Origin: Spirochaetia bacterium
GTDB lineage: Bacteria > Spirochaetota > Spirochaetia > UBA9216
Length of the DNA: 64,000 nucleotides
Assembly: GCA_965140585.1 (NCBI GenBank)
Contig: OZ223269.1
Location: forward strand, 928,001-992,000
Direction: 5' to 3'
Positions 1,294 to 35,635 of this stretch are shown in pieces. A program made the translations under genes and the position numbers. Below the pieces are notes generated by a model, which saw only the letters and a list, made by a program, of their open reading frames with translations, was not told the DNA's origin and made no database searches. How positions within the stretch are numbered: position 1 is the stretch's first letter; each line of letters begins with the position of its first letter.

Positions 1294-2224
1294 ATGAAAA
1301 AAGGGTTATATCAGTGGTCTTCTTCCGAAACAAGTAAAACTTAAAGAAAAAGTATGGTTGAAAAAAGATGAAATATTATTGGAAAAGAAAAATGATGAAA
1401 TAATTGCGTATCTTATTGGAGATGAAAAATTACAGTTTGATGATAATAATAAAATAATTCCATATTTATGGATGTCCTGTCTTATAACAAATAATACTCC
1501 AAATTTAAAAAGTTGTGGTGGAGCTTTAATAGAATCGGTTGAAAAGCTTGGAACAAAATCCATATTGTATGGTTCATTATTAGAGATAATACCAGAAGAA
1601 GCAGTCAATGAGATCGAAAAATACACTGGGGAATTTATTAAATTTATTGGAGATTTACACGATAAATATATTTTATTAATTGAGGAAAATGACTTTTTAA
1701 AGATTTCCTTAAAATATTTTTATGAAGCAGAAAAGAAAAATGTAAATTCTGATGAAGGTTTTATAGATTCAATAACATGTTTAGAAGCCCTGTTTAATGA
1801 AAGCTCAAATGATATTAAATATAAATTATCACATCGAGCAGGATTCTTATTAGGATTATTTAAATATAATTCTATAGAAGTATATGAGAAATTAAAGAAA
1901 TTTTATAATGATAGGAGTAATTTGGTTCATGGAAATGGTGCTTTGAAGTATGAGAAAGATAGATATCTTATTGAAGAATATACAAGAAGCGCAATCATTA
2001 TTTTTCTTATCCTTTTGTCGAATGATAAAAGAAAAGAAGATATTAAGAAAAAAGACAGAAAAAATCAGATATTAAAAGAAATAGATCATGCAATGCTTGA
2101 CTATGAAAAAAGTAATAACTTAAAGAAAGAGATTGATATTGGTATTGAAGATTTCAAATTAAATATACCAAGGGTTTTTGAAGGGAAAGGTAAAAAAGGT
2201 AATTATTATATACACGCATGGTAA
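1294..2224 (+). CDS. HEPN-domain (ApeA-like) putative RNase; probable +1 frameshift in A6 run after ATG 1294 (ORF track start 1358)
   Basis: LEALF...KYKLSHRAG and RSNLVHG (Rx4H) motifs; GGAG RBS precedes ATG 1294, which is one base out of frame. Confidence 0.7.
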
Positions 2225-2228
2225 AACC

Positions 2229-2367
2229 ACATAACAAAAGATTTGGAGTAGTCAAAATTTATTGTCACGATTCTGGCTAAAGACGTTCGGGCAATGGCCC
2301 TCACTCCAGAATCGCGCCAATTCGGCGAAGACGCCGATCAATTTTGCTACTCAAATCGTCGTTATAC
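2229..2367 (+). repeat. attC site 2
   Basis: ACATAAC...GTTATAC; GATTTG(G)AGTAG(T)CAAAA/TTTTGCTACTCAAATC. Confidence 0.93.
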
Positions 2368-2475
2368 GGAATATCGTGTATCTTTATAGCCTTATCCTGA
2401 AATTGGGGCGTAATTGGGGTGAATTTATGGATTCAATCTCAAGAATTGTTTTCATATCTTTGATTGATTAAATAG

Positions 2476-2510
2476 TTGACGTACGTTAATAAGTACTATA
2501 TATTGTACAT
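2476..2510 (+). promoter_or_regulatory. Sigma70 promoter with YefM-type operator
   Basis: TTGACG(2476)-17-TATATT(2499); GTAC cores at 2481, 2493, 2505 (12-bp spacing), the last within TGTACA. Confidence 0.75.
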
Positions 2511-2765
2511 ATGGAAGCTGTTAATTATTCAGATCTAAGACGAAATTTAAAGGCTCATATGGATCAAGTTTATCAGGATCACGAACCTCTTATTATTACA
2601 AGAAAAGATAATGAGAATTTAGTGATGATTTCATTAGATGATTACAATAGTCTTACAGAGACACAATACTTATTATCATCTAAGAAAAATTCTGAACATT
2701 TGATGAAATCACTTGAATCAGCTAGGGCTGGTAAGACTCTTAAAAAAGAATTAATTGTAGAATGA
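2511..2765 (+). CDS. yefM: Phd/YefM antitoxin
   Basis: NYSDLRRNLK...EPLIITRK...MISLDDYNSLTETQYLL; overlaps toxin (ATGA). Confidence 0.92.
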   Translation: MEAVNYSDLRRNLKAHMDQVYQDHEPLIITRKDNENLVMISLDDYNSLTETQYLLSSKKNSEHLMKSLESARAGKTLKKELIVE

Positions 2766-3016
2766 ATTTACTATTTACGCCTGAATCCTGGGATGATTAT
2801 CTATTCTGGCAGAAGAATGATAAAAAGAATTTAAGAAGAATTAATGAATTAATAAAAGATATTAGACGAAATCCATTTGAAGGAATTGGTAAACCTGAAC
2901 CATTAAAATATCAACTGCAAGGATGTTGGTCTCGTAGAATCGATCAAGAACATCGTCTTGTATATGAAGTAGAAGAAAAATTTATAAGAATCATTGCATG
3001 TCGATACCATTATTGA
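2762..3016 (+). CDS. yoeB: Txe/YoeB toxin
   Basis: WDDYLFWQ...GIGKPEPLK...WSRRIDQEHRLVY...CRYHY. Confidence 0.95.
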   Translation: MNLLFTPESWDDYLFWQKNDKKNLRRINELIKDIRRNPFEGIGKPEPLKYQLQGCWSRRIDQEHRLVYEVEEKFIRIIACRYHY

Positions 3017-3141
3017 ATGATGCTTTCTTGTTTCAGAATATCTATTATAAATAAGAAATATTAGAAATTTAAGAATATAAGATATCTGGATATTAAAAGA
3101 ATAAAAGCTCCTGTAAACCTTAAAACCATTGTAAAATATCC

Positions 3142-3273
3142 GTATAACAAATGAAATGCAGTAGTCAAAACCTTTGACACGGTTCTGGCAGAGACACTCG
3201 CTTAGCGCTCGTTCCAGAACCGCGCCAAGCCTCGAAGACTCGGCCGGTTTCGCTACTGATTTCGTCGTTATGC
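3142..3273 (+). repeat. attC site 3
   Basis: GTATAAC...GTTATGC. Confidence 0.92.
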
Positions 3274-3300
3274 GGACGCCTCCGGCGCCTAAGGAAGAAA

Positions 3301-4344
3301 ATGAAGAAAAGGAAAGTAGTCCTAATAGTGATTACTGTAATTGTGCTAATTTTATTGGTTATAGAAATACTCCCAAATAAAACCACAGTTGAGAGCACAA
3401 CTGATGGTATATATCTCCTAAAAGAGATGAATCTGGTAGGATTGAAGCAATCTATCCTGATAAGAGGAGAAAATAGATCAAACCCAGTAATAATCTTTCT
3501 ACATGGAGGGCCAGGATTCGCTAGTATAAGTTATATAAAGAAATTTCAGAAAGAAATTGAAAAACATTATGTAGTAGTAAATTGGGATCAGAGGGGAGCA
3601 GGGAAGTCATTTTCATTATTTATTGATAAAAATACAATGACAGAAGAACAAATTTTAAATGATCTTGATCAATTAGTAGATTATTTAAGTAAAGAATTTG
3701 ATAAGGAAAAAATATATATAGTAGGACATTCATGGGGAACAATATTAGGAAAGGACTATGTTCAAAAACATCCAGAAAAAGTTGAATATTATGTAGCCAT
3801 TGGAGAATATGTATCAAGCAATGAATCAGATAAGTATTCTTATGAATATTTACTAAAAGAATCTGAAGCAAATAATGATAAGAAGACATTAGAAAATCTG
3901 AAAGAAATTGGAAAACCTCCTTATGGGGATAATATAAGAAAACAACGGAAATTTAGAAAAATTATTAATGAATATGATGGAAATGAGATAATCGTAAATA
4001 TAAATAAAGAAATGTTAAAAGGCGCAATAACAGAACCAGAATATTCAATAATTGATCTTCTGAAATTGACTATAGGCAATTACTATTCCATCTATCATTT
4101 ATTTAATGAATATGAGGATAGAGATTTTAGAGAAGAAAATTTGGAATTTAATGTTCCAATACTATTTATATTAGGAAAGAAAGACCTTGTCACAAATAGT
4201 CTATTAGCAGAAGAATATTTTGAAGAAATAGAAAGTAAAAATAAGAAATTAATATGGTTTGAAAAATCTGGTCATGATCCACAATATGAAGAATTAGCCA
4301 GATTCAATGATATTCTAATAGGTTTATTAGAACGAACCGATTAA
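3301..4344 (+). CDS. Membrane-anchored alpha/beta hydrolase (proline iminopeptidase-like)
   Basis: N-terminal TM, HGGPG, WDQRGAG, GHSWG nucleophile, C-terminal SGH. Confidence 0.88.
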   Translation: MKKRKVVLIVITVIVLILLVIEILPNKTTVESTTDGIYLLKEMNLVGLKQSILIRGENRSNPVIIFLHGGPGFASISYIKKFQKEIEKHYVVVNWDQRGAGKSFSLFIDKNTMTEEQILNDLDQLVDYLSKEFDKEKIYIVGHSWGTILGKDYVQKHPEKVEYYVAIGEYVSSNESDKYSYEYLLKESEANNDKKTLENLKEIGKPPYGDNIRKQRKFRKIINEYDGNEIIVNINKEMLKGAITEPEYSIIDLLKLTIGNYYSIYHLFNEYEDRDFREENLEFNVPILFILGKKDLVTNSLLAEEYFEEIESKNKKLIWFEKSGHDPQYEELARFNDILIGLLERTD

Positions 4345-4353
4345 TGGGAATTC

Positions 4354-4491
4354 GCATAACATGAGATTTGGAGTAGTCAAAATCTTTGTCACAGTTCTGG
4401 CGGAGACACTTCGCGCTGATCGCGCTGCGTTCCAGAACTGCGCCAAGCCTCGAAGACTCGGCCGATTTTGCTACTCAAATCGTCGTTATGT
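4354..4491 (+). repeat. attC site 4
   Basis: GCATAAC...GTTATGT. Confidence 0.93.
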
Positions 4492-4530
4492 TCACAAAAA
4501 TTGGGAATTTATTAAATCCGAGGGATTTAA

Positions 4531-4794
4531 ATGAGTAAATTCAGAACCACTGAAAGCCATCAAAAGGGCTACCAAGGACTGCGATGGTTTGAGATACACA
4601 ATGATAAGATTTATCCTACAGTTTCTAATCCAGACGGATGGAGTAGTATGTCATGGTACGAAATTAAGGGTGATAAGATATATCCTTCCATTAGTCATCC
4701 TAAAGTGTGGTCAGGCTTACCTTGGTTTGAAATAAAAGAAAATAAGATAAATTGTACTGTGAGCCATTCAGATGGCACGGTCACCTTGGTATAA
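4531..4794 (+). CDS. Small protein built of ~23-aa Trp-rich repeats
   Basis: W[FY]EI..[DN]KI...SHP.GW-like unit x3; GAGGG RBS. Confidence 0.6.
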   Translation: MSKFRTTESHQKGYQGLRWFEIHNDKIYPTVSNPDGWSSMSWYEIKGDKIYPSISHPKVWSGLPWFEIKENKINCTVSHSDGTVTLV

Positions 4795-4868
4795 AAATTA
4801 TTAGATAACAATTTTTTTAGAAATATAAATTGTGATGTGATCAGTGATTAGAAATTAAGAGGTTATTT

Positions 4869-5516
4869 ATGGAAGAAATAAATAGAATAGAATTATCTGA
4901 ATTAGATTATAAAAAATATTTAAATAAATTGAGTCAGATTAATATTAAAGTTAATAGATTATTATATAAAGTAAGTTTGGAGGAATACTATGGAGCTATA
5001 TTTTCTAAGATTATTTTAATAAGATTAATAATTACTTTTAAAAATGTAAAAACGTTTATTCTCAAAGAATTAGCGATAGAATCTTTTGTATTAATGCGCT
5101 TCATTCAAGAACAGAGATGTTATTCGTATAGCTTATTAGATGTAAAAAATGATGAAGATATTAAAAAAATATCTATAACAAAGAGTATAAATAAGTTCAA
5201 AGAAAGATTCTTAATAAATGGTCAATTTTATGGAGAATTAACAAGATATGTCCATTTGGATATACATGAAATTGGTTTTTATACATCACTAGATGAAAAG
5301 ACTGAGAATATAATGAATGTAGATTTAAATCATAATGACTCGGAAATTAATTATAAGATGTTCGATAGTTTCTATGTTTTAACATTGTTTTATCTTGATC
5401 TTGTACAATATATTTTAGAACTTGAGAATAAAGATGATTCATCTATACGAAAAATTGAAAAATATAATAGTGAAATTTATGATGTATTCAGAAAGGTATT
5501 TCAGAATGAAAATTAG
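4869..5516 (+). CDS. Hypothetical helical protein, possibly HEPN-like (DUF5677-type)
   Basis: LMRFIQE and YGELTRYVH motifs; GAGG RBS. Confidence 0.5.
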   Translation: MEEINRIELSELDYKKYLNKLSQINIKVNRLLYKVSLEEYYGAIFSKIILIRLIITFKNVKTFILKELAIESFVLMRFIQEQRCYSYSLLDVKNDEDIKKISITKSINKFKERFLINGQFYGELTRYVHLDIHEIGFYTSLDEKTENIMNVDLNHNDSEINYKMFDSFYVLTLFYLDLVQYILELENKDDSSIRKIEKYNSEIYDVFRKVFQNEN

Positions 5517-5517
5517 A

Positions 5518-5655
5518 ACATAACAAGAGATTTGGAGTAGTCAAAACCTTTGTCACAGTTCTGGCGGAGACACTCCGCGCTGATCGCGCTGCGTTCCAGA
5601 ACTGCGCCAAGCCTCGAAGACTCGGCCGATTTTGCTACTCAAATCGTCGTTATAT
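5518..5655 (+). repeat. attC site 5
   Basis: ACATAAC...GTTATAT. Confidence 0.93.
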
Positions 5656-5773
5656 GCACGAATTTAGATATTGTAAAAATATTAGATATATGTGAATTTT
5701 GGGTGTAAAATAATAAAATAAAGTCGTGTTCCGATAAGAATTTAAATAGATGTTCATCATCTAAGCGTTGATT

Positions 5774-5797
5774 TCCTCGGCCATCCATGGCCTCGGA
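5774..5797 (+). promoter_or_regulatory. Stem-loop with ATCCAT loop upstream of RT
   Basis: TCC-tc-GGCC ATCCAT GGCC-tc-GGA. Confidence 0.6.
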
Positions 5798-5812
5798 GCA
5801 AAGGAATAAAAA

Positions 5813-7408
5813 ATGGATTACGATAAAGCAATTAATCTTGCAATATCAAATACATTAAAAGAAGGTTTAAACGATACCTTTCCACGCCCATTTGAAGTTG
5901 ATTTACTCAAAAATACAGTATTTCAAAAAAAAATTTTTGATGTAATTAAAAAATCATTAAATGGGAATTCTTTTGAAAGTATGGGAGTAAATAACATTTC
6001 ACATGTGTTGTTTCCTAAAAACACAGCTTTTGATTTTAGACGATGTGCACTGATACAGCCTATGGATCTTATAAAATACAATGCAATCATAATATCTCTT
6101 GCTGATGAAATAGAAAAGAAAAGAATTCCAATATCAAAAAAGAACATTTTTTCTTATCGATTTAAACCTGAAAAAGGATATTTGTTCAATAGGAATTATC
6201 ATATAACCTCCTTTCAGAAGCAAGTACGAGAAGTTGCAAAGAAAAAAAGAGTAAATTTCGTCGTTTCATGTGATATAGCTAATTTTTATGATAGATTAAA
6301 CTTGCATCGCCTAGAAAATTCATTACTTTCAATTGGATGTGATAAGAATAAAGTTAAAACTATAAACGAACTACTTCTATTTTGGTCAAATAGAGATTCT
6401 TATGGACTTCCTGTTGGGTCAAATGGGAGCAGAATATTAGCTGAAGCGAGTTTAATTGGTATAGATAATTTTCTTAAAGATAATAATATCGAATTTATAA
6501 GATTTGTTGATGATTTTAGACTATTTGCTCCTGATACAACAACTGCGCATTATTGGTTAACACTTTTAATTGAAAGACTTTGGAGAGAAGGTTTAAATAT
6601 AAGCAAAAGTAAAACAAAAATAGAAGCAACTTCAAAAATTAAAGAAGATAACGTGGAAAAAAATAAGACTTCACCAGAAAAAAGAAAGGATAAAAATCCA
6701 TTTATAATAATAGCTGGGTATGGTGGAACTGTTCCAACTAGATTTAGAGAGATTTCTAAAAGGGAAATTGAACAATTAACAAAAATAAATTTAGAAGAAC
6801 TTATAAAGGATATTTCTGAATCTGATTTTATAAATTCTGATAGATTAATGGAATTGATAAAAATCATTGTAATAAAGAAACGATTTGATCTACTGGAAAA
6901 GACAATTAAATCGTTGCCAAAATATCCGCAAATGACTCCATATTTGATAGATGCTATAATTAAAAATATAGATATTATACCAAAGGAAATAATAAAAGCA
7001 GTGAAGGATATATTTTCTGAAAAAATAATATCACAGAAATATATACCTGAATATTTAGCTATATCATATATAAGGTTGCTTGGGTGTGTACCGTTTTATA
7101 ATAAAGAGATTATTTTAAAATATTTTAGGGAATTACAAAAGAATTCAGGTGATTATATAGGAAGGGTCACCCTCGAAGCTTTAAATGTTGATTTGACACG
7201 GGAAGATGTAATTGAATTAAAAAGCTATTATGATAAGTGTGATTTATGGGAAAAAAGACAGATTATTAGATTAATAAATAAATTCTTAAATGATGAAGAA
7301 AAAAGACCTTGGATTAAAAATCTAAGATATATAGAAAAAGATAATCTGTTTATAAATGAAACAATAAGTCCGTCAGAAAAACCACGAAAGAAGAAAAAAA
7401 AGAAGTAA
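5813..7408 (+). CDS. Reverse transcriptase, UG/Abi(DRT)-like, with long alpha-helical C-terminal region
   Basis: RT motifs FSYRF, DIANFYDRL, GLPVGSNGSRILAE, FIRFVDDFRLF, GLNISKSKT; sole gene of its cassette. Confidence 0.9.
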   Translation: MDYDKAINLAISNTLKEGLNDTFPRPFEVDLLKNTVFQKKIFDVIKKSLNGNSFESMGVNNISHVLFPKNTAFDFRRCALIQPMDLIKYNAIIISLADEIEKKRIPISKKNIFSYRFKPEKGYLFNRNYHITSFQKQVREVAKKKRVNFVVSCDIANFYDRLNLHRLENSLLSIGCDKNKVKTINELLLFWSNRDSYGLPVGSNGSRILAEASLIGIDNFLKDNNIEFIRFVDDFRLFAPDTTTAHYWLTLLIERLWREGLNISKSKTKIEATSKIKEDNVEKNKTSPEKRKDKNPFIIIAGYGGTVPTRFREISKREIEQLTKINLEELIKDISESDFINSDRLMELIKIIVIKKRFDLLEKTIKSLPKYPQMTPYLIDAIIKNIDIIPKEIIKAVKDIFSEKIISQKYIPEYLAISYIRLLGCVPFYNKEIILKYFRELQKNSGDYIGRVTLEALNVDLTREDVIELKSYYDKCDLWEKRQIIRLINKFLNDEEKRPWIKNLRYIEKDNLFINETISPSEKPRKKKKKK

Positions 7409-7437
7409 TCCTAAAGTCCGTCCATGGACTTTAGGAT
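7408..7437 (+). promoter_or_regulatory. Perfect 12-bp stem-loop with GTCCAT loop at RT stop codon
   Basis: ATCCTAAAGTCC GTCCAT GGACTTTAGGAT. Confidence 0.75.
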
Positions 7438-7461
7438 ATTTATTGGAAAAGAAAGAGTTGC

Positions 7462-7599
7462 ATATAACAAAAGATTTGGAGTAGTCAAAATCTTTGTCAC
7501 AGTTCTGGCGGAGACACTCCGCGCTGATCGCGCTACGTTCCAGAACTGCGCCAAGCCTCGAAGACTCGGCCGATTTTGCTACTCAAATCGTCGTTAAAT
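7462..7599 (+). repeat. attC site 6
   Basis: ATATAAC...GTTAAAT. Confidence 0.93.
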
Positions 7600-7670
7600 A
7601 CACAAAAAGTAATTCTTATAGTATCATATGAATATAAAATATATAATTTACTACAATTGGAAGAGATTAG

Positions 7671-7925
7671 ATGAGTGGAGCTGGAACAAATTTAGGGATA
7701 GAATACCAACAAAGAGTATCTGCGTGGTTCTTAGTCCAGTTATACCTTTCAACTGGTATTAATCTTTTTTTTAGAAACTTTAATGATAATTTTGTACCAA
7801 TAGAACTACAATATGAATCTGATAATGCAGTTGATGATTTAAATATTATAGGAAGTGATTATACACTTTTTGCGCAAATAAAACGAAATTTAGCAATGTC
7901 ATCTAATAAGAAAAGTGATTTTTAA
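7671..7925 (+). pseudogene. Truncated N-terminal PD-(D/E)xK nuclease domain (Cap4/DUF4297-like)
   Basis: SGAGTNLGIEYQ...ESDNAVDDL...FAQIK; ends where base composition shifts to higher GC. Confidence 0.6.
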
Positions 7926-7981
7926 ACTGAGCACGGAATGTCAGGTTTTTCGGTTTTTGATACCTTATCTTATTACAAACC

Positions 7982-8902
7982 ATGATGCTTATGAATGAAA
8001 AAGATTTCCGGTATCACCGGCGGCTACAGAATGCAATAGATTATATCGAAGCTCATCTTCATGTGGATTTATCATTGCAGGAGGTGGCAATGCAGGCCAA
8101 CACTTCAATTTTTCACTTCCACAGACTCTTCCGGGCCTTTATGGGCCGGTCTCTGGCGGAGTATATAAGGGAACGCAGGCTATATTATGCGGCTCGAGAT
8201 CTGGTGGAAACCAAAAAAAGCATTTTTGATATTGCATTTGAATATGGATATTCCAGCGGGGAAAGCTTCCTTCGGGCTTTCAAGTCTCAATACGGTCAAA
8301 CCCCGCGGCGTTTTCGAAAGATACGAAATCTCCCTCCCTTCATGAGCATGGTTAATTTAATGGACGGCAACCATCATGGTGCCAAAGGAAGGTTAATCAT
8401 GAATCCAAAAATCAAGGTGCTAGATTCTCTGCGGATAATCGGTACACGCATTCAAACCAGTCATAGTTCCTGTCATGAAGATGTTTCCGACCTATGGAAA
8501 GATATCCATAGCAAGGCAAGTACAGGATTACACGACGAACTCAGCAGTGTAGATGCCATATACAGCGTTTGTTACGGCTCTTGCAATGGCTGCAGTTGTA
8601 CCGGAAATACTCACTCGGGAAGTGAAAATTTTGCTTTTTTTATCGGATATCAGGCACAGAAAGAAAAAGAATTGCCTGCCGGTACTTTCGAAACGACAAT
8701 TCACGGAGGAACCTATGCACTGTTCAGCCTCAAAATTAGTGAGATGCAACAGACAATGGATCAAATATATTCTCAATGGCTTCCTAAATCCGGGTATGAG
8801 CTGGATCACTACCCTATAATTGAAAGATATGGAAAGGACTGGCAGGAGAAAAAAGAGGGTATTATGGAAATATGGTTGCCCCTCAAAGTAGAAGCCTCAT
8901 GA
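7982..8902 (+). CDS. AraC-family regulator with GyrI-like effector domain
   Basis: SIFHFHRLF...IAFEYGYSSGESFLRAFK HTH; C-terminal IYSQWLPKSGY...EIWLP. Confidence 0.9.
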   Translation: MMLMNEKDFRYHRRLQNAIDYIEAHLHVDLSLQEVAMQANTSIFHFHRLFRAFMGRSLAEYIRERRLYYAARDLVETKKSIFDIAFEYGYSSGESFLRAFKSQYGQTPRRFRKIRNLPPFMSMVNLMDGNHHGAKGRLIMNPKIKVLDSLRIIGTRIQTSHSSCHEDVSDLWKDIHSKASTGLHDELSSVDAIYSVCYGSCNGCSCTGNTHSGSENFAFFIGYQAQKEKELPAGTFETTIHGGTYALFSLKISEMQQTMDQIYSQWLPKSGYELDHYPIIERYGKDWQEKKEGIMEIWLPLKVEAS

Positions 8903-10021
8903 AGAATCAACCTACAATACTGCTTTTTATAATCGGATTCTTTCTATTTTGGGTGAACTGTAGTGTCCTACATGCTTTGCTTCGGTCTGTTCACTCTATT
9001 TTTTGGTCCCCTGGGTGATAGGTTCGGCAAAACCAGAATACTGAAGCTGGCGGCAATGGGTTCTGCTGTTGCAAGTTTGGCTTCAGCCTTTTCTCCAAAT
9101 CTGAATGTAATTATTGTTATCCGGGCAATTAACGGTGCTTTTTCTGCCGGGGTTATGCCGATTTCAATGGCTTATATCGGAGAAACATCTCCTCAACATG
9201 AAATGCACAGCCGAATCGGCAAGGTTATGGGGCTGATGTTCCTGGGAAGCGCCCTGGCCACGGTAATCGGCGGAACAGTATCCCAGCTGGGTTCCTGGAG
9301 AATGGTATATTTGGTATACGGATTTGCGGAGTTGCTGTTAGTAATTCCTCTTTTCCTTCTGTTGCCTACTGACTCAACAGTAAAAAACAGCTCTATAGGG
9401 TCAGGATACAAAGAATTGCTTCGAACCCCGGGGTTCCTGAAAACTGTCGGTTTACTGTTTTTTATCGGCTTTTCTACCCTAGGTACTTTCGCATACCTGG
9501 GAGAGTACCTTCGTCAGCTCACCGGTTACGGTCTGATTCGGATCGGGTGGATTTTGGGAGCCTACGGAATCGGAACACTCTTAGGCGGAAGAATAGCGGC
9601 AGAATTACGCATGAAAATCGGCAAAGCCTTTTATTTTCTTGCTGGTTTAACGGGCGGAATAGGCTTCACATTCATATCCTTCAGCAGTACTTCTGCATAC
9701 ATCGCGGTGGCAGGATTATTTTTGGCAGGCTTAGCCTTCATCAGCCTGCAATCTTCCATTGTTTTTCAAGCACAGAATCTTGCACCGATGCGTAGAGGAG
9801 CTGTAATGTCAGCCGCTTCTTTTACAATGGTAACCAGTGCAGCCTTGGGAACATTTCTAAACGGAAAAATATTTGCCATAATGTCGGACGGCCTGCTCTA
9901 TTGTGCCGCCGGGGCTTTCTTAACCGCCGGTCTGCTGGCAACCCTAGTTTTATTATTTCGTAAACCCGGGGGGCAGAACAGACCCTCATCAATAGAATCA
10001 CATACTTCATTGAAAACATGA
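8899..10021 (+). pseudogene. MFS transporter with N-terminal deletion/frameshift
   Basis: ATG 8899 (MKNQPTILLFIIGFF) is out of frame with the 8963 ORF carrying GPLGDRFGK motif A. Confidence 0.75.
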
Positions 10022-10211
10022 TTTGTTAACCGGCAGTCTTCACAAAAGGCTACCGGATTTTTATTTTATAGATATTTAGGTGAAAACTGCCAGTAATTCA
10101 ATGCCATGAAGAGACTGGAAGTTGGAATCTTTCTTACATGAAAGAAAAACACTGAGAACAATAACAATTTACAATCAAATTCCTCATATTATATTATTAA
10201 TTTTAATAAAA

Positions 10212-10739
10212 TTATTTTCTCCTTTTTGCAAAAACTTCCTGGTTCATTTTCCAAGTTTTCGTTTTATCATTAGTAACAAACGCTTCCCATTTAAATGATT
10301 CATCAGTTATATCTTTAAAAACCCATCTTGAGATTTTGCCTTTATCAATAAATGGTATTTCATCTTGAACTATCTCATCATTTTCTACAGTAACTTTAAA
10401 TACGTTGAACTGCGAAAGTATTGGTCCAAACCAAAATGCTTTTATATTGTTTTCTTTAAAATCATAGACTCTGATTGTCGTCCCATACTCACCTTCCGGA
10501 TATTTATCCGTTTTTCGGAGTTCTCTTAATGGACATATCCAATTATCTTGAATAACACGCCCTTCCAAAATCCATGTAAAAATCCATTCACCTGGAACTG
10601 TCCAAGTTGAGCCATCATCCTCATGTCCCACCCAATCAAAATTCCAGTTGCCAATTAGCGGAGCATATGGACGTAATTTCTCCTGATATTGTTCATGAAC
10701 ATTATCAGCTAGTAAGGACTTTATAAATGTGTTTATCAT
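10212..10739 (-). CDS. Hypothetical beta-rich protein
   Basis: LIGNW...GEWIFTWILEGRVIQD...GTTIRVYD; GGAG RBS before ATG 10739. Confidence 0.7.
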   Translation of the reverse strand: MINTFIKSLLADNVHEQYQEKLRPYAPLIGNWNFDWVGHEDDGSTWTVPGEWIFTWILEGRVIQDNWICPLRELRKTDKYPEGEYGTTIRVYDFKENNIKAFWFGPILSQFNVFKVTVENDEIVQDEIPFIDKGKISRWVFKDITDESFKWEAFVTNDKTKTWKMNQEVFAKRRK

Positions 10740-10852
10740 ATTTACTCCTATCGAATAAAAATCTATACAAGGTCTTTCATAGTTAGTAGCGAAGCACAGA
10801 TGCCGAATGTTCAAAATCGCAAAATAAAAAACTCTGATTTGGCACAATTCCC

Positions 10853-11512
10853 TTAACTAACAATAACTTTATACAGACATAATGAAATCGGCAAACTAAA
10901 AGCCAAAAAACCACTGATTGTATGACCCCGTGCTGACCATTTTGCAGAATTAGTAACAAACGTAACTATTGAATATGTGACTCCAAGAGGAAATGTAGAA
11001 ATTATAAAAATTACAGGATGATCACTTTGGATAGAAAACTGAGGTGCGATATGCCAAAGAGTAAAAAATATTGACGGAATAAATACAGACCACAATATAC
11101 TTTTAGGAAATACTTTAATATAAAGTCCTCTCCAAAATAATTCCTCACAATATCCATGAATTATTGAGAGTGGGATAGCAAGAATTATTATAGCTGGAAT
11201 CATTGATGGTAGCTTCGGAATGAAGTACATAAATATCGGTACCAATATTGTGGATGCAAATAATATTAAAATCCACCAATTCTTCTTCCTGAAAAGAGGT
11301 CTTTCATTTCTGAAAAAGCTGAAAAATGATCTCTTCGATGTATAAAGCGGAATTAATATGCACCATATTATGTAATAAAATGCAAAGCCTAATAGATAAC
11401 CCCAATACTTTCCCAGGGATTTAGTTGCAACATAGAAAACAAACGATGTAGTTAAGATCAAAAGAATGGGGAGTATTATAAAGAGTCCTTTTTTCGTTAG
11501 CATAGAAAACAT
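10853..11512 (-). CDS. CPBP-family intramembrane metalloprotease
   Basis: EELFWRG, FTLWH motifs; multiple TMs. Confidence 0.85.
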   Translation of the reverse strand: MFSMLTKKGLFIILPILLILTTSFVFYVATKSLGKYWGYLLGFAFYYIIWCILIPLYTSKRSFFSFFRNERPLFRKKNWWILILFASTILVPIFMYFIPKLPSMIPAIIILAIPLSIIHGYCEELFWRGLYIKVFPKSILWSVFIPSIFFTLWHIAPQFSIQSDHPVIFIISTFPLGVTYSIVTFVTNSAKWSARGHTISGFLAFSLPISLCLYKVIVS

Positions 11513-11582
11513 TATTTAGCTCTCCAATCTGCTATAGATAGCATATTCTTTTTATTCATATAAATTATTTTGCGTTTATTTC

Positions 11583-11671
11583 CAATAATGTTTCAGAAAT
11601 ATGCGAAATGCGGCAACTTCGCATTTGCCGAAGGCCGGCCCATTGGGTGCAGTGCATATTTCTAGTTAATT
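11583..11671 (-). repeat. Degenerate attC-like site in inverted orientation
   Basis: Minus strand reads AATTAAC-T-AGAAATATGC...GCATATTTCT-GAAAC-ATTATTG (GTT box mutated to ATT); overlaps the SDR stop codon. Confidence 0.5.
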
Positions 11672-12453
11672 GTGTCATATGGTACAGGTTGAGTACCATC
11701 GATATCTTCAAAACCATATTCCTTAGCCAATTCAGCAGTTACTAATATTTGTCCAGTTTTTGATATTGGTTTTACATCAGAAGCCAAGTGTGAAATTGCC
11801 CTCCCGACGAACTGAGAGGATTCTTTTTTGGGATTGGGCTTCTTCTTGTTATCGTCAATGTAACCGGGATATAATGAAACACAAGTAATGTTATATGGTT
11901 TTAGTTCGACTGCCATATCCATAGACATTTTATCAACTGCTGCCTTTGCAGTACCGTAAATTACATTTCCGTAGTATTTAAGACTGGCATAAAACGAAAT
12001 ATTTACTATTAATCCTTGCTTTTGCTCAATCATCATTTCTGTGGCAAAAACACTTGAAACAAAATTTGAACGAACACCAACATGGTTCATTTCATCCCAC
12101 AACTCTATAGGTTGTTTCCAAAAAACTTCTTTCCACTTAAAGCCTTTATATTTAGTTCTGTTACGTAACCGATTATAACCACCCCAAGCATTGTTAACCA
12201 ATATATCCAGCTTTCCTTCTTTTTCTTTAATAATTTCAAATACTTTTTTTACTTCCTCATCTATCTCATGATTACATGCTAATGCAATACCTTTTCCGCC
12301 AGCAGCAGTAATACCCTTTACATCTTTGTCGGTTATACTTCTGCCTGTTACATAGACAGTTGCTCCTGCTTCACCTAAACCGATTGCGATTCCTTTGCCA
12401 ACGTTACGGGTTCCGCCTGTTACAAGCGCAACTTTCCCTTTAAGATTTTTCAT
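11662..12453 (-). CDS. Short-chain dehydrogenase/reductase (DHRS1-like)
   Basis: VTGGTRNVGKG, LDILVNNA, YGTAK. Confidence 0.92.
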   Translation of the reverse strand: MKNLKGKVALVTGGTRNVGKGIAIGLGEAGATVYVTGRSITDKDVKGITAAGGKGIALACNHEIDEEVKKVFEIIKEKEGKLDILVNNAWGGYNRLRNRTKYKGFKWKEVFWKQPIELWDEMNHVGVRSNFVSSVFATEMMIEQKQGLIVNISFYASLKYYGNVIYGTAKAAVDKMSMDMAVELKPYNITCVSLYPGYIDDNKKKPNPKKESSQFVGRAISHLASDVKPISKTGQILVTAELAKEYGFEDIDGTQPVPYDTIN

Positions 12454-12537
12454 TTTGTCTCCTGATTACCAATTTTAGATATTATTTTAGTTAAATTTGT
12501 GGTTGTTTTCTTGACCTATATTGCTATTTTTGTGTAT

Positions 12538-12780
12538 TTAACCAAAATATATTGCACAGCCATAGTTATTTATCTTTCTTATGTTGTGAACTAAGCAATA
12601 TAATAGCCATTGCGTATTTACCTTCTTTTTACTCCGTAATGTGAAATGATTTAATTATAATACTCCACTTAAATGACCAAATATGGATTCAACTGTCCCC
12701 ATCCTCTTACTATAAATGCTCCAGCCTTCTACAGTATCAAATCGTTTTTTTATTTTTGATGTAAACGACTCTTTGCTCCT
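12538..12780 (-). pseudogene. IS1182-family transposase C-terminal remnant
   Basis: Manual translation: YSKRMGTVESIFGH..*..FTLRSKKKVNTQWLLYCLVHNIRKI. Confidence 0.8.
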
Positions 12781-12833
12781 AGGATGTGCAAAGCTGTTAT
12801 ATCATTCTTGTCGATACACTCAATATTTTTTTA

Positions 12834-13046
12834 TTATCCCCAAAAACAACAATACTCATCCTTCTCAACTATTTCTATAAATTCTTCAAGTTTATCTACA
12901 ATTGGAGCAGTTTCGTATATATGCCATTTTAGATCACTTCTCATCCATAATATTTTCCATTTTTTCTTAGTAGCTACATATGTTGTTTTGGCTATATCAT
13001 GATTGTGAATTATATCTCTATTATCCCATTGCGGCCTAATCTCAAA
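12834..13046 (-). pseudogene. DUF3024-like protein, 5'-truncated
   Basis: Manual translation: FEIRPQWDN...IAKTTYVATKKKWKILWMRSDLKWHIY...DEYCCFWG*. Confidence 0.7.
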
Positions 13047-13219
13047 TGCATTGGCCTATTCCATGGAGATGAGAATAAAGATATTGATACTTATTATAAA
13101 AATCAAACATCAGGAGCAAGCAATATTGTTGAGCAAGCTGATAATAGCAAATGGATAGAGCATTATGAAGAATATGAAAGGGAAATTGCAGCTCTTGAAT
13201 CTTTGCCTATTATTATAAA

Positions 13220-13386
13220 CCTGAATCCGTATCAATCAAGGGGAAAATAAAAATTATTTCTTTGATATACAGAGAATAAGCATATTTTCATACGTTCACC
13301 TATTGGGTGAAACCCAATATCATGGATATTTCCATATAAAACAATGAATTAGCATTTGTCCTTTTGGCTTTTTATACGGATTCAGG
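13220..13386. mobile_element. MITE, possibly IS1380-derived
   Basis: Perfect terminal IR CCTGAATCCGTAT/ATACGGATTCAGG; 167 bp with no internal ORF. Confidence 0.65.
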
Positions 13387-13535
13387 TGAAAATAGAATAT
13401 GCTACTTAGAGGATAAATTTACTGGATTCTTATAGGATTATTTGAATCTTGTCAAAAAAATCTAAAATAAAATAAATTAATAGAAAAAAAAATTTAAAAA
13501 AGAGTAAAAGTAAAATTGATAAAAATAGAAATGGT

Positions 13536-13670
13536 ATTTAACAAATCGCTGAAACTGACCAAATCTTTGTCATGCTTTTTGCCTTCGGCCGTTCAGTCAC
13601 TGATCGTTCTTTCACTCAAAAAGCACGCCAACCCTTCGGGACGATTTGGCAGCTTAGCTCGGCGTTAAAT
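13536..13670 (+). repeat. attC site 7 (divergent family)
   Basis: ATTTAAC...GCTGAAACTGACCAAATC/GATTTGGCAGCTTAGC...GTTAAAT. Confidence 0.85.
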
Positions 13671-13821: not shown

Positions 13822-13857
13822 TTGAAATAAGTTAGCATGCATGCTAACTTATATTGT
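13822..13857 (+). promoter_or_regulatory. TA promoter with perfect 26-bp palindromic operator
   Basis: TTGAAA-17-TAACTT; ATAAGTTAGCATG/CATGCTAACTTAT at 13827-13852. Confidence 0.75.
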
Positions 13858-14220
13858 ATGAAACGAGAAATTATCTTCTATGAAAAAGAAAATGGAAGAT
13901 GTCCAGTTGAAGAATTTTTAGATGATCTTGAGATAAATATTGTTAAAAAGATTACATGGACTCTAAAAATTATTGAAGAGATAGATATAGTTCCAAAGAC
14001 TTATTTCAAAAAATTAGAATCAACAGAAGAAATTTGGGAAGTAAGAATAAAATTCGCTTCAAATATATATAGAATATTTAGTTTCTGGGATAAAAATAAC
14101 ATAATTGTGTTAACGCATGGATTAATAAAGAAAACTCAAAAAACCCCTGCAAAAGAGATAAAACAAGCAGAAGAATATAGACGAGATTATCTGAGGAGGA
14201 AGAATAATGAACTTAGATGA
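13858..14220 (+). CDS. RelE/HigB-like (gp49-type) toxin
   Basis: FYEKENGRCPVEEFL...IWEVRI...YRIF...LTHGLIKKTQKTP. Confidence 0.88.
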   Translation: MKREIIFYEKENGRCPVEEFLDDLEINIVKKITWTLKIIEEIDIVPKTYFKKLESTEEIWEVRIKFASNIYRIFSFWDKNNIIVLTHGLIKKTQKTPAKEIKQAEEYRRDYLRRKNNELR

Positions 14221-14479
14221 ATATGTTGATAAAAGAATAAAAAAAGAAGGAATTAAAGAAGAAGAATTCTGGGAAGGGTATGAGGAATTCAAGATCGGTG
14301 TATTTCTAAGAGAAGCAAGAGAGAAAAATGGATTAACCCAGGAAGAATTAGCTAGAATGATACATACTACAAAGAGTGTAATATCAAGAATGGAAAATCA
14401 TTCAGAGGATATAAAATTATCAACAATTGAAAAAGTCGCAAAGGCTTTAGGAAAGGAAGTGAAAATAGCGATAGTATAA
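14207..14479 (+). CDS. HigA-like XRE HTH antitoxin
   Basis: LREAREKNGLTQEELA...ISRMEN...LSTIEKVAKALG. Confidence 0.88.
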   Translation: MNLDEYVDKRIKKEGIKEEEFWEGYEEFKIGVFLREAREKNGLTQEELARMIHTTKSVISRMENHSEDIKLSTIEKVAKALGKEVKIAIV

Positions 14480-14589: not shown

Positions 14590-14728
14590 ATTTAACAAGA
14601 GATTTGGAGTAGTCAAAATTTATTGTCACGATTCTGGCTAAAGACGTTCGGCCAATGGGCCTCACTCCAGAATCGCGCCAATTCCGCGAAGACGCGGAAC
14701 AATTTTGCTACTCAAATCGTCGTTATAT
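14590..14728 (+). repeat. attC site 8
   Basis: ATTTAAC...GTTATAT. Confidence 0.93.
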
Positions 14729-17322: not shown

Positions 17323-17461
17323 ATATAACATGAGATTTGGAGTAGTCAAAATTTATTGTCACGATTCTGGCTAAAGACGTTCGGGCAATGGCCCTCACTC
17401 CAGAATCGCGCCAATTCCGCGAAGACGCGGATCAATTTTGCTACTCAAATCGTCGTTCTAC
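17323..17461 (+). repeat. attC site 10
   Basis: ATATAAC...GTTCTAC. Confidence 0.92.
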
Positions 17462-17605: not shown

Positions 17606-17899
17606 ATGACTTTCAATTGGAATGACGAAAAGAATGAACTTTTGAAAAATACAAGAAAGATCTCATTTGAGGAGATAGTTCTCTGTATTTCCGAAGGAAA
17701 GATCGTAAAAGTTCTTAAACATCCTAATAGTAATAAATATGGCAATCAAAAATTATATTTGATTGAATATAAGAATTATATTTATGTCGTTCCATTTGTG
17801 ATAAATGAAAAAGATAATGAGATTTTCTTGAAAACAATATTTCCAAGTAGGGAATATACAAAAAAATATCTTTCTAACGGAGGGAATAATGAAAAATAA
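17606..17899 (+). CDS. BrnT-like toxin
   Basis: FNWNDEKNELLK..R.ISFEEI...FLKTIFPSR. Confidence 0.8.
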   Translation: MTFNWNDEKNELLKNTRKISFEEIVLCISEGKIVKVLKHPNSNKYGNQKLYLIEYKNYIYVVPFVINEKDNEIFLKTIFPSREYTKKYLSNGGNNEK

Positions 17900-18191
17900 T
17901 AGAGTAATCACTCCAATTGATAATGATGAATTAGAATTAATAGAATCAATTAATAATGATGAATGGTTAGAATCTGAAGAAGAAGAAAAATATATTGTCC
18001 AGGCTAAAGAATATGCAGAAGCTACTATTAAAAAAGATAAACGAATGAATATAAGAATCTCTGAAAGAGATCTAAAGAATTTAAAAGTTAGAGCTTTAGA
18101 AGAAGGTTTGCCTTATCAGACATTGGTTTCTATGATACTTCATAAATATGTATCTGGGAAATTAATAGAAAAATCCAGTAATTATAATTAG
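17889..18191 (+). CDS. BrnA/CopG-like RHH antitoxin
   Basis: RMNIRISERDL...GLPYQTLV..ILHKY. Confidence 0.82.
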   Translation: MKNNRVITPIDNDELELIESINNDEWLESEEEEKYIVQAKEYAEATIKKDKRMNIRISERDLKNLKVRALEEGLPYQTLVSMILHKYVSGKLIEKSSNYN

Positions 18192-18332: not shown

Positions 18333-18401
18333 ACACATGACAAAATAGATAAAAACCACGAAATAATTGACTAATACCATCTCGTATGATAATATATGGT
18401 C

Positions 18402-19010
18402 ATGAAGAAGATTTATAACGAAAATAGTGACTTTCTGAGTGTAATAGGTACAACTGTATATCATGGGATGCTCACTGCTGATAGTGAAATCCAAAGTAAA
18501 GAATATTTAAAATATTGTTACGGTCGCAATCACGTTAGTAATATTAGAAGAGCAGTTGTAGAATATGAATTATTGAAATTAGGTAGTATTGGGGAAAATG
18601 CAATTCTATCGAAGGAAGAATATACAAAGAAGCAAACATCATTCTTTTTAAAGATGAATTTCAATGATGAACTAATACTTACTACATTTAGATTAAGAAA
18701 TAGGGGAGATTTCCCTAAGAAAGCGAATTACCGTGGTAATTATGCTGAAAACAATCAAATTTCTTTATTCCCTGAATATGAAGAAAAGGATTTAGTATTA
18801 CAAGATCAATCTTATGGAATAATTTGTTTTGGAAAAGATGCCGAAGGTATTTTTTCTTTTATTGGGTATCCTGATGAGAATAATAAAGAATGGATACAAG
18901 TTACAAATCTGGAAGATTATTTTAATATCAATGTTGAACCTGAAGTTTTTGTAGATGAAGTACAGCCGAAATTAAAGATAAGCCAGGAAGTAAAAGATGG
19001 AGTCATTTAG
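18402..19010 (+). CDS. Hypothetical protein, candidate toxin of a RosmerTA-like pair
   Basis: Overlaps downstream HTH-metallopeptidase; TTGACT-17-TAATAT promoter 7 nt before ATG 18402. Confidence 0.6.
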   Translation: MKKIYNENSDFLSVIGTTVYHGMLTADSEIQSKEYLKYCYGRNHVSNIRRAVVEYELLKLGSIGENAILSKEEYTKKQTSFFLKMNFNDELILTTFRLRNRGDFPKKANYRGNYAENNQISLFPEYEEKDLVLQDQSYGIICFGKDAEGIFSFIGYPDENNKEWIQVTNLEDYFNINVEPEVFVDEVQPKLKISQEVKDGVI

Positions 19011-20136
19011 AGGAGATTTTATTGGTGAACGATTAAGAGAAGCAAGAGAATTCAATGAATTATCACAAACCAAATTAGCTCAATTAATTGGTGTACAACG
19101 TCAGACAATCTCTGCAATTGAGAAAGATGTACAAAATCCCAATGCTGAGAATACTATTAAGATATCTAATGCTTTGAAATTTCCTATTGAATATTTCTAT
19201 TACGACAATAATTATAATAATAAAATAACAGGAGTAACAACATTTCGAAGTGTTAAATCAAGCTCTAAAAGAAAAAAATTAAGAGCTGAAATATTTATAA
19301 AATGGTTATACCAGATAATTATTAATTTGAAAGAATACGTAGAATTTCCTGAATTTAATTTGGAAGGTTATGAAAATATTGATTATAAGAAATTAAAACC
19401 ACATGATATTGAAATAATAACTGATGAAATACGAAATAGATTAAATATAGGTTTTGGTCCAATTATAAATATTGTGAATTTAATTGAAAATCAAGGAGTA
19501 TTTGTTGGTGTATCAGAATTTCCCGAAAAAATTGATGCATTTTCAGCTTCATACAAGAATTTTGCAACAATGTTGTCTTCTTTTGAAAATAACAAAGCAG
19601 CCCGGAATAGATTTAATTTAGCACATGAACTAGGGCATATTGTTTTACATCGTTTAATTGATGAAGAACAATATATTGAAGATTTTAATCTGATTGAAAA
19701 ACAAGCACATAGGTTTGCTTCTTCGTTGTTATTACCTAGAAATGAATTTACAAAAGAATTCTTTTCAACTGATTTAAATAATTTGATTCGAATGAAAGAG
19801 CGATGGCATGTTTCAATAGCAGCTATTGTTGTACGTGCAAGACAATTAAATTTAATTTCAGAAGATAAAATGAGTAATGTATTTAGAAGAATGAATTATA
19901 ATGGTATTAGAAAGATTGAACCACTTGATGATAGATTAATCATAGATAGACCTACTTTGTTAAAAAAAGCTATCGAATTAATAATTGATAACGATGTATC
20001 AACTAAGGAAAAATTTATAAAGGAAGTAGGCGTACCAGGTACTTTTATTGCTCAAATAGTAGATCTTGAAGATGATTATTTTATAGAACATAATAAAATT
20101 ATTGACTTCAACTTAAAATTAAAAAATAGTACATAA
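18997..20136 (+). CDS. XRE HTH + ImmA/IrrE (DUF955) Zn metallopeptidase
   Basis: LREARE..LSQTKLA HTH; RFNLAHELGH; EKQAHRFASSLLLP. Confidence 0.9.
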   Translation: MESFRGDFIGERLREAREFNELSQTKLAQLIGVQRQTISAIEKDVQNPNAENTIKISNALKFPIEYFYYDNNYNNKITGVTTFRSVKSSSKRKKLRAEIFIKWLYQIIINLKEYVEFPEFNLEGYENIDYKKLKPHDIEIITDEIRNRLNIGFGPIINIVNLIENQGVFVGVSEFPEKIDAFSASYKNFATMLSSFENNKAARNRFNLAHELGHIVLHRLIDEEQYIEDFNLIEKQAHRFASSLLLPRNEFTKEFFSTDLNNLIRMKERWHVSIAAIVVRARQLNLISEDKMSNVFRRMNYNGIRKIEPLDDRLIIDRPTLLKKAIELIIDNDVSTKEKFIKEVGVPGTFIAQIVDLEDDYFIEHNKIIDFNLKLKNST

Positions 20137-21764: not shown

Positions 21765-21959
21765 ATGCGAACAAATATAGTGATTGATGATAGTTTAATG
21801 AATCAAGCAATTGAATTATCTGGATACAATACAAAGAAAGAAACAGTTGAAGAAGCTTTAAGAATGTTAATAAAGTTCAAACAGCAGAATGCGATAAGAT
21901 CATTAAGAGGCAAATTGAAGTGGGAAGGCGATCTTGATGAGATGAGAATTGATAAATGA
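21765..21959 (+). CDS. vapB: VapB antitoxin
   Basis: MRTNIVIDDSLM...TKKETVEEAL...WEGDLDEMR. Confidence 0.88.
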   Translation: MRTNIVIDDSLMNQAIELSGYNTKKETVEEALRMLIKFKQQNAIRSLRGKLKWEGDLDEMRIDK

Positions 21960-26364: not shown

Positions 26365-26420
26365 TTAAGGGTCTAATATGTATAAAAATTACAGAATTAC
26401 ACTTTAAATTGGGTAAATAC

Positions 26421-34216: not shown

Positions 34217-34224
34217 AAATAGCT

Positions 34225-35599: not shown

Positions 35600-35635
35600 T
35601 TAGGCTGTCCACTTTTTGTGGGGCACTCCAGGATC

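Follow-up and report, generated by a model that had tools for sequence, protein, structure and literature searches.

A DRT8-type reverse transcriptase as the sole gene of a cassette in a spirochaete chromosomal integron

We analyzed a 64,000-nt stretch of DNA (the window) from a Spirochaetia bacterium of GTDB lineage UBA9216 (assembly GCA_965140585.1, contig OZ223269.1, positions 928,001 to 992,000 of the forward strand; G000:C6:928001-992000, where G000 is the genome and C6 the contig). It carries a gene for a reverse transcriptase (RT) of 531 residues, which belongs to the DRT8 (UG7) family of the Class 1 UG/Abi lineage and is the only gene of a cassette in a chromosomal integron (Table 1). 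We consider it probable that this RT is a stand-alone DRT8 enzyme that acts as a single-gene abortive-infection defence, by protein-primed, untemplated synthesis. A preliminary description of the window had proposed a UG/Abi-like RT packaged as an integron cassette with structured flanks. The evidence for the enzyme and the cassette is given first, and the flanks are then considered separately.

The open reading frame (ORF) has no internal stop and contains the motifs that the preliminary description had picked out: DIANFY at residues 154–159, GLPVGSNGS at 198–206 and FVDD at 231–234. Pfam RVT_1 matched residues 113–272 (54.5 bits against a cut-off of 29.6). Among PADLOC models, Drt8 gave the best match (E 4.3e-127, 423 bits), aligning residues 4–506 with profile positions 4–477 of 493. 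The next-best model was RT_UG20 (E 1.3e-38, 131 bits), followed by UG21 and UG19, with lower scores for Drt4 (1.8e-22) and AbiP2 (1.7e-13). NCBIfam models for Drt4, Drt5, Drt3a, Drt2 and group II RTs all fell far under their cut-offs (Drt4, 67.6 versus 450 bits). Because the Drt8 profile fits the full length of the protein and beats every other RT group, the RT is assigned to DRT8; the UG group, which the preliminary description could not assign by eye, is thus UG7. We also aligned 57 homologous sequences, 45–65% identical to the query. All 57 match the Drt8 model, and the RT keeps all 66 invariant columns, including D154, Y159, V232-D233-D234 and K267.

The DRT8 family is sparse. Matches to the Drt8 model at E <=1e-40 were seen in 6/301 genomes of the host's class (counting G000) and in 4/401 of another phylum. 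Relatives of the RT occur in four plasmid records, all on megaplasmids and all at <=34% identity, and in no phage record at E <=1e-20. Fused RT forms of 931–2,655 residues were likewise absent at E <=1e-20, which is weak evidence. ESM Atlas returned generic RT clusters only, with no structure of this RT. A single 1,867-nt short-read contig spans positions 5625–7491 without differences; in four runs, short-read contigs break at the attC repeats. The C-terminus (residues 520–531, window positions 7370–7405) is a lysine-rich tail, PRKKKKKK, of low model confidence, and the closest relative, L008, is likewise K-rich there, as read from its DNA.

An AlphaFold model of the RT (pLDDT 88.0, pTM 0.87) has an RT lobe that extends to about residue 281, then the linker, then a lobe of 13 helices. 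Foldseek placed DRT4, DRT6, UG15, AbiK and Abi-P2 in the top ten, with AbiA next, and ranked DRT9, group II, DRT2, retron and DGR RTs behind these Class 1 enzymes. With VIA-align, both lobes aligned with Class 1 enzymes only, at Z 15.8–20.1 over 387–449 residues (model ~1–525). The individual matches were to DRT6 (9wy8; Z 20.1, root-mean-square deviation 4.7, 433 residues, model 5–517), AbiA (8oz7; Z 18.8, 392 residues), DRT4 (9vdo; Z 17.8, 429 residues), AbiK (7r06; Z 17.2, 449 residues), UG15 (9l9s; Z 16.1, 431 residues) and Abi-P2 (7r08; Z 15.8, 387 residues). Alignment of group II, DGR, DRT9, DRT2 and retron RTs was confined to model residues 1–~284. In the model, residues 316–518 form the alpha-repeat-like lobe that replaces the thumb and is the hallmark of the Class 1 UG/Abi RTs. 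No solved DRT8 structure was found by sequence search. The two-lobe fold and the Drt8 profile uphold the earlier placement in the UG/Abi lineage, with its helical C-terminal part.

These comparisons bear on another reading, in which the RT belongs to a mobile retroelement, either a retron or a group II intron, for instance one that targets attC. Some group II introns are known to insert at attC sites. The RT lobe superposes on group II intron RTs (Z 20.9, 258 residues), and the NCBIfam model group_II_RT_mat scores 55.7 bits. Yet this score is far under the cut-off of 300, and group II and retron structures cover residues 1–~284 only, with no counterpart of the helical lobe. Moreover, a search of positions 4000–9000 at E <=1 detected no RNA family of group II introns or retrons, and the attC sites on either side of the gene are complete, with no interruption. 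The preliminary description had named clustering with group II intron or retron RTs as evidence against its proposal; profile and structure instead favour Class 1, and the retroelement reading can practically be set aside.

The cassette was defined by mapping attC sites. In sequence, the sites read ..ATAAC, GATTTGGAGTAG, CTACTCAAATC and GTTATAT, which we take to be the R'', L'', L' and R' boxes, respectively. The core pattern occurs 11 times in the window, versus 0 expected. A profile made from ten copies was used to search the genome with nhmmer, giving 32 copies. Contig C6 has 28 of them, every one on the + strand, from C6:919943 to 966452. (The other four lie away from the integrase, three on C2:33100-35246 and one at C9:478765-478904, with no integrase.) The bottom strand of the RT cassette's attC folds into a long imperfect hairpin (DNA fold z -6.0, 0/200 shuffles as good). 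An integron integrase gene lies at C6:916649-917575 on the opposite strand (419-aa ORF; TIGR02249, 374.7 bits against a cut-off of 265), and its nearest named relatives are in Spirochaetales/Spirochaetota metagenome-assembled genomes (MAGs), at ~50% identity. Given the attC layout, the folding of attC and the adjacent integrase, the array is a sedentary chromosomal integron. The RT is the 12th detected unit of this 28-attC array, between attC 11 and 12 and ~15.7 kb from the start of intI.

The preliminary description had noted that the ends of the unit match. The matching sequences are GTTATATGCA at 5649–5658 and TGCATATAAC at 7459–7468, one base off its numbering. The first is the R' core that ends the upstream attC and the second the R'' core in the attC of the RT cassette itself, with R' (5649–5655) complementary to R'' (7462–7468). 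The preceding cassette shows the same end complementarity (GTTATGTTC versus GAACATAAC). Such a match is expected because cassettes excise and insert as circles; the crossover point lies within the attC core (G/TT). No second ORF was found in the cassette, which at 1.9 kb is large for this array. The attC map, the single ORF and the integrase all agree with the proposal that the RT is the sole gene of a unit delimited by attC sites.

Cassette bodies in the array have GC contents of 0.23–0.30, with 0.36 for two large units, versus 0.41–0.46 for the contigs of the genome. The same attC family was found in four of five genomes searched: one of the same genus (G001, 34 hits) and three of the same family (G007, 40; G004, 17; G006, 6). 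It was not found in G044, the Oceanispirochaeta MAG that carries L008. The RT itself was not found in 40 related genomes, including 0/10 in its family. Since relatives have the attC family but lack the RT, the RT is variable cargo of a lineage-specific integron, which is also an indirect hint that IntI may excise and insert the cassette.

Table 1. Features of the window discussed in the text (window positions; a slash in a core marks the crossover point)
Feature	Position	Strand	Basis or remark
attC of preceding cassette, ~140 nt, host-lineage type; R' core GTTATAT at 5649-5655	5517-5657	+	nhmmer E 1.1e-48, model positions 5-145
RT cassette, 1,944 bp, G/TTATAT to next G/TTAAAT	5650-7593	+	attC map
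AT-rich leader (5' untranslated region), 163 nt	5650-5812	+	no counterpart in relatives
GC-rich dyad, TCCTCGGCCAT (5774-5784) / ATGGCCTCGGA (5787-5797)	5774-5797	+	9/11 complementary, 2-nt spacer, unique in genome
Shine-Dalgarno-like AAAGGA, 7 nt before ATG	5800-5805	+	sequence; unpaired in predicted fold
RT gene, 531 aa, DRT8/UG7-type, Class 1 UG/Abi	5813-7408	+	ORF translation, profiles, model
Catalytic FVDD codons, residues 231-234	6503-6514	+	V232, D233, D234 invariant in 57 sequences
Flexible linker, residues 280-307	6650-6733	+	pLDDT <50; hypervariable, charged, ends in invariant AGYGG
All-helical C-terminal lobe, residues 316-518, 13 helices	6758-7366	+	AlphaFold model
12-bp perfect hairpin (13 with G-T pair), then ATTTATT	7408-7437	+	terminator-like on both strands
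attC of RT cassette; R'' ATATAAC at 7462-7468, R' GTTAAAT at 7593-7599	7459-7600	+	nhmmer E 1.1e-47
Toxin-antitoxin-type cassettes: Phd/YoeB, Gp49 + HTH, BrnT/CopG-like, two PIN genes	2511-3016; 13837-14479; 17606-18191; 21956-22348; 31297-31707
RmrT/RmrA, RosmerTA-like	18396-20136		RmrA E 3.5e-99
PDC-S19: DUF3644 + EC042_2821 restriction-endonuclease-like	22601-23860		E 2.3e-73
AbiLi/AbiLii	26409-28343		E 4.9e-83 and 1.8e-9
2TM effector	29027-29614

To place the RT among its relatives, we used 56 homologous loci, 22 from species genomes and 34 from metagenomes. The attC detector was crude: in the first 40 kb of the window, where 22 attC had been mapped, its output was 18 candidates, and several of these were false. 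A strict scan, which gave 3 matches in 68,318 nt of ORF-internal control sequence, flagged attC beside the RT in 5/56 loci (L035, L043, L048 and L056, with a weak signal in L049). No weight was therefore placed on the less certain calls, L031, L042 and L049. In all, related RTs lie within attC-bounded cassettes in at least six other loci. In L056 (59% identity), a canonical 59-nt attC ends 16–17 nt before the ATG. L035 (50% identity) has the same layout with a gap of 16 nt, and the next attC starts 2 nt past the stop codon. Gaps between the R' core and the start codon are 52 nt in L048 (57% identity) and 32 nt in L043 (46% identity).

A further case, L070 (G172:C1:149108-153715), came from a search across the host's class. 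Here the RT is the sole gene between two attC of 106–128 nt, with 18 nt from R' to the ATG, R'' 8 nt past the stop codon, and R' and R'' perfectly complementary (GTTATGT/ACATAAC). The integrase of L070 is 1.6 kb away, two attC off, on the cassettes' own strand; the arrangement in G000 is divergent. Thus, because the relatives have leaders of ~20 nt and an attC 2–8 nt past the stop, the selected, mobile unit would be the RT gene alone, with no noncoding RNA (ncRNA) or obligatory neighbour.

Structure in the flanks of the window's RT gene was assessed by folding against shuffled sequences. The perfect 12-bp hairpin that the preliminary description had placed at the stop codon is there: its arms (7408–7419 and 7426–7437) enclose a 6-nt loop, it begins at the last base of the TAA, and it folded better than all shuffles in each of two runs (z -3.9, 0/200; z -7.1, 0/300). 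Among terminator-like sites in the window's first 20 kb, it also ranks first. The two leader hairpins of that description both exist but carry less weight than it gave them. TAGATG-ttcat-CATCTA, at 5747–5763, is weak (z -2.4; 9/300 shuffles fold equally well), and 63 inverted pairs of >=6 nt occur in the 2 kb of the RT region. The other, its 'ATCCAT hairpin', is the GC-rich dyad at 5774–5797 directly upstream of the ribosome-binding site, incompletely paired (Table 1) and with a fold z of -2.1; a small hairpin or an operator are candidate roles. The leader as a whole folds modestly beyond chance (z -2.46, 2/200 shuffles as good), and its 3' half somewhat more so (z -3.0, 2/300).

Neither flank has a recognizable counterpart. 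Comparison of the 163-nt leader and 57-nt trailer with the 56 homologous loci gave chance-level matches only (best E 0.16), neither matched elsewhere in the genome, and Rfam gave nothing at E <=1 except one chance-level match to a small RNA (E 0.54). Because the flanks lack counterparts and those of cassette-borne relatives are nearly nil, a conserved cis RNA forms no part of the DRT8 family unit. The proposal of functional structured flanks is therefore not supported, for want of a counterpart in the 56 loci, in the genome or in Rfam and of room in the relatives. As the preliminary description itself had it, unconserved flanks count against the RNA part alone.

One could still suppose that the window's own flanks (5656–5812 and/or 7409–7461) encode a structured RNA that gives the RT a template, a primer or a scaffold, as happens with DRT2, DRT3 and DRT9. 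A ribosome-binding site would not need so long a leader, the 3' half of the leader folds beyond shuffles, and the GC-rich dyad stands out in an AT-rich context. Furthermore, ncRNAs of UG2 are described as lacking sequence conservation between groups (PMC9226505), so dissimilarity is weak evidence. But the short R'-to-start gaps of the relatives (L035, L056, L043, L048 and L070) and the attC sites that begin right after the stop codon (L035 and L070) leave such an RNA little place. Flank similarity is absent, as noted, and the 3' hairpin fits a terminator. In addition, the characterized Class 1 enzymes are reported to be untemplated (10.64898/2026.10.21.760695), and the groups for which PMC9226505 reports ncRNAs, as far as its account goes, are UG2, UG3+UG8, UG28 and UG27, not UG7. 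We regard an RNA partner as very unlikely; the 3' hairpin looks like an ordinary terminator and the leader like an ordinary leader.

We then asked what genes accompany the RT. The scan covered 66 neighbour ORFs, 53 of them immediate neighbours in the 56 loci and 13 from further genomes. These are mixed defence-island genes (OLD-like ATPases, Mrr, UvrD, a Schlafen-type helicase, HEPN, Fic, AbiEii, methylases and an SNF2/DUF1156 pair), and housekeeping genes are present as well. No neighbour family recurred among the 66, and none of them, some being unannotated, was a recognizable PD-(D/E)XK 'cluster 17' partner. OLD-like genes adjoin the RT in 5/56 loci, on either side, and are 26–30% identical to one another over partial lengths. 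In the window, the cassettes adjoining the RT gave no match to such a nuclease. UG7 is reported to comprise two variants, one with a remote PD-(D/E)XK nuclease and the other (165/358) without an associated gene (PMC9226505). With no partner gene in the cassette and no recurrent PD-(D/E)XK neighbour, the RT fits the stand-alone variant.

The closest relative, L008 (63% identity), has a fuller cassette. Repeated attC-like elements (1612–1709 and ~5600–5713, z -5.4) bound a 4-kb unit (1612–5713) that contains the RT and a split gene for an OLD-family ATPase/TOPRIM protein (ORFs 2200–2649 and 2710–3942). The next unit holds a single DUF3644 + restriction-endonuclease-like gene, as at window positions 22601–23860. 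The window RT and this sister carry different attC types. In G044, the match to an integron integrase contains an in-frame TAA and lies ~618 kb from L008.

A rival possibility is that the RT needs a partner encoded elsewhere. For the UG7 variant without an associated gene, Mestre et al. proposed a trans-acting nuclease (PMC9226505). A candidate is the DUF3644 + EC042_2821 restriction-endonuclease-like protein encoded in another cassette of the array (PADLOC PDC-S19). In its favour, L008 has a like DUF3644 gene in the next cassette, and the OLD-family ATPase/TOPRIM gene shares the cassette of the L008 RT itself. However, cassettes shuffle independently, and a system split over cassettes 15 kb apart would be unstable; PDC-S19 is a candidate system of its own in PADLOC; and the RT of L070 is alone in a minimal cassette. 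The scattered, divergent OLD-like neighbours and the lack of any recurrent family also speak against an obligatory partner, which we therefore judge unlikely.

A maximum-likelihood tree was built from 43 full-length rows, with 14 partial loci excluded (L019, L027, L029, L048, L051, L052, L055-L062). The window RT is sister to L008 (support 100/99). Rows borne on attC cassettes are scattered, with 3 changes needed for 4 rows, and we conclude from this scatter that integron capture of these RTs is recurrent. As the attC-borne rows do not group in one clade, we abandoned the view that these RTs make up a single 'integron lineage'.

How might a stand-alone DRT8 enzyme work? A role in phage defence is inferred from family membership: UG7, named DRT type 8 and placed in Class 1, protects E. 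coli against T5 and needs its RT active site to do so (PMC9226505). The characterized Class 1 enzymes (AbiK, Abi-P2, AbiA, DRT4 and DRT6) all make untemplated DNA primed on their own Tyr, Ser or Thr (10.64898/2026.10.21.760695; PMC9508834; PMC12783706), and they act as trimers or hexamers (10.64898/2026.10.21.760695; PMC9508834; 10.64898/2026.10.27.754916; PMC12783706). With DRT4 and DRT6, toxicity is triggered when a DNA-binding protein of T5 acts on the single-stranded DNA (ssDNA) product (PMC12783706); recent preprints add a built-in RNase in DRT4. By analogy, the RT would oligomerize, prime DNA synthesis on a hydroxyl side chain of its own and make untemplated ssDNA. The fate of this product during infection, such as its binding by a phage single-strand-binding protein, would then trigger growth arrest, and the integron would store the one-gene unit and could move or re-position it. 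In a complex prediction, three copies of residues 308–531 scored 0.02 (mark 0.42), which counts neither for nor against assembly.

Two tyrosines outside the catalytic motifs, Y115 and Y303, are invariant in 57/57 sequences. Y115 lies in the motif F-S-Y-R, on a well-ordered hairpin between fingers and palm. Y303 (codon 6719–6721) belongs to the motif NPF.I.AGYGGT.PT.FR, where the hypervariable charged linker of 26–46 residues ends. Our guess, made on the model, is that Y303 is the priming residue, because its flexible tether resembles the loop that carries Tyr44 of AbiK; Y115 is the other candidate.

Several points weigh against this picture. The TM-scores to solved Class 1 enzymes are just 0.41–0.54, at 13–16% identity (Foldseek), and the priming residue was chosen by a guess based on conservation and on how confident the model is. 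Class 1 is not uniform, in that DRT3 relies on an ncRNA and DRT7 on a protein template (listings including PMC13213688), and a 2026 mini-review lists the mechanism of DRT8 as not established (PMC13213688). The one DRT8 system with a published test is the nuclease variant, and its nuclease active site was required (PMC9226505). The RT cassette has no nuclease gene, which makes the autonomy of the stand-alone form putative. Finally, the cassette's place in the array is far from the integron promoter, and promoter-like matches occur at chance frequency (22 versus 22.5 expected; 112 versus 106.5 expected), so the gene may be silent at its present position.

This last point can be taken further, with the RT as stored cargo that is unexpressed unless the integrase moves the cassette to first position. 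Besides the distance from intI and the lack of promoter signal above chance, most cassettes are reported to be promoterless, and distal defence cassettes to be inactive until relocated (10.1101/2024.07.02.601686). On the other hand, the leader extends ~155 nt past the attC match, within the 141–184 nt range of the leaders of this array's toxin–antitoxin cassettes, a class reported to have (weak) promoters (10.1101/2024.07.02.601686). An own promoter within the leader is thus plausible. The cassette also has its own terminator, and the RT keeps all invariant residues. We hold silence at the present position to be unlikely, and it would in any case concern the state of the gene, not its identity, and be compatible with a single-gene DRT8 defence.

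Other cassettes of the array carry defence and toxin–antitoxin genes (Table 1). Apart from unknowns, those adjoining the RT encode an AraC/GyrI-like 'Cass2' regulator as well as an MFS transporter. The unit on the 3' side of the RT cassette (7601–13556) runs for 5,956 nt without a detected attC, with a GC content of 0.43–0.47 at 8–10 kb. It contains an 84-aa ORF like the N-terminus of PDC-M54A, the AraC + GyrI-like/'Cass2' regulator and the MFS transporter and, on the minus strand, a gene of unknown family, an Rce1-like protease and a short-chain dehydrogenase. In appearance, this unit is closer to an insertion or a composite than to a normal cassette. After the attC at 34222–34362 come IS3-type transposase genes and IS21/IstB fragments (34428–36920), and half an attC only (model positions 3–73) is found at 38382–38452; the array seems to end in insertion-sequence debris. 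Some attC variants (2322–2337, 14682–14699, 17416–17431) have a short GC hairpin followed by a T-rich run, e.g. TCCGCGAAGACGCGGA TCAATTTTGC, with a terminator-like score, and attC sites themselves may stop read-through.

Both ingredients of this locus are already known. Defence cassettes in chromosomal integrons are established, DRT8 has been known since 2022, and the RT cassette is a new example of the two, otherwise ordinary. The terms DRT, reverse transcriptase and retron do not occur in the main text of 10.1101/2024.07.02.601686, whose supplementary tables may list such cases; a 2026 cassette-recovery preprint makes no mention of an RT or DRT cassette; 'integron' does not occur in the main text of PMC9226505; and none of the papers listed by a literature search was on this topic by title. 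The added value is modest: the borders of the cassettes show that the stand-alone DRT8 unit consists of the RT gene alone, and DRT8 is among the few numbered DRT types still listed without an established mechanism. The cassette is also a small, well-delimited construct (1.9 kb; less in relatives) for work on autonomy, priming residue and trigger.

A bolder version, which we put forward tentatively and think doubtful, is that stand-alone DRT8 is a complete one-protein immune system of ~530 aa (sensor, Y303 self-priming polymerase and effector, with no nuclease and no RNA), repeatedly captured by integrons of several lineages. If this is true, attC boundaries provide the natural definition of the system. 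That the RT takes part in making cassettes is highly improbable, since the characterized Class 1 enzymes copy no template.

Among known systems, DRT8/UG7 is the closest: it gives the best, full-length profile match, has ~530 aa with an RT and a helical lobe, and its second variant, like the RT cassette, has no associated gene (PMC9226505). The tested DRT8 differs in having a required PD-(D/E)XK nuclease gene. DRT4 (UG15) and DRT6 (UG12) are single-gene systems and provide the closest solved structures over both lobes. Their trigger is a T5 DNA-binding protein (PMC12783706), and UG7 also protects against T5 (PMC9226505). Yet they are only 13–16% identical to the RT, and neither the priming Y125 of DRT4, on its fingers–palm loop, nor its RNase residues H160/D192 could be mapped onto the RT, HMMER aligning residues 195–273 only. 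Two DRT4 homologues for the profile were found in 401 genomes, both below the cut-off.

AbiK, Abi-P2 and AbiA share the thumb-less RT lobe and helical lobe, arranged in a C shape, and align structurally over the full length. The priming tyrosine of AbiK sits on a long unstructured loop (PMC9508834), to which Y303 on the linker would be analogous; the AbiK loop is N-terminal, however, and the RT is of a different family, as its weak match to PADLOC AbiP2 indicates. The ncRNA-dependent DRT2, DRT3 and DRT9 differ in that the RT has no sizeable conserved structured-RNA region, and Class 2 structures match the RT lobe only. As for the setting, Darracq et al. (2025) reported 783 defence systems in cassettes of 32,798 genomes (10.1101/2024.07.02.601686; summarized in PMC13434031) and presented integrons as stores of defence genes (10.1101/2024.07.02.601686). 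Their account is centred on Vibrio, and the commonest systems it names are PfiAT, Shedu, AbiV and PD-T7-4. The RT locus has a known defence family in one cassette of a large array, beside toxin–antitoxin and defence cassettes, and fits such a 'biobank', to which it adds an RT-based system and a non-Vibrio host.

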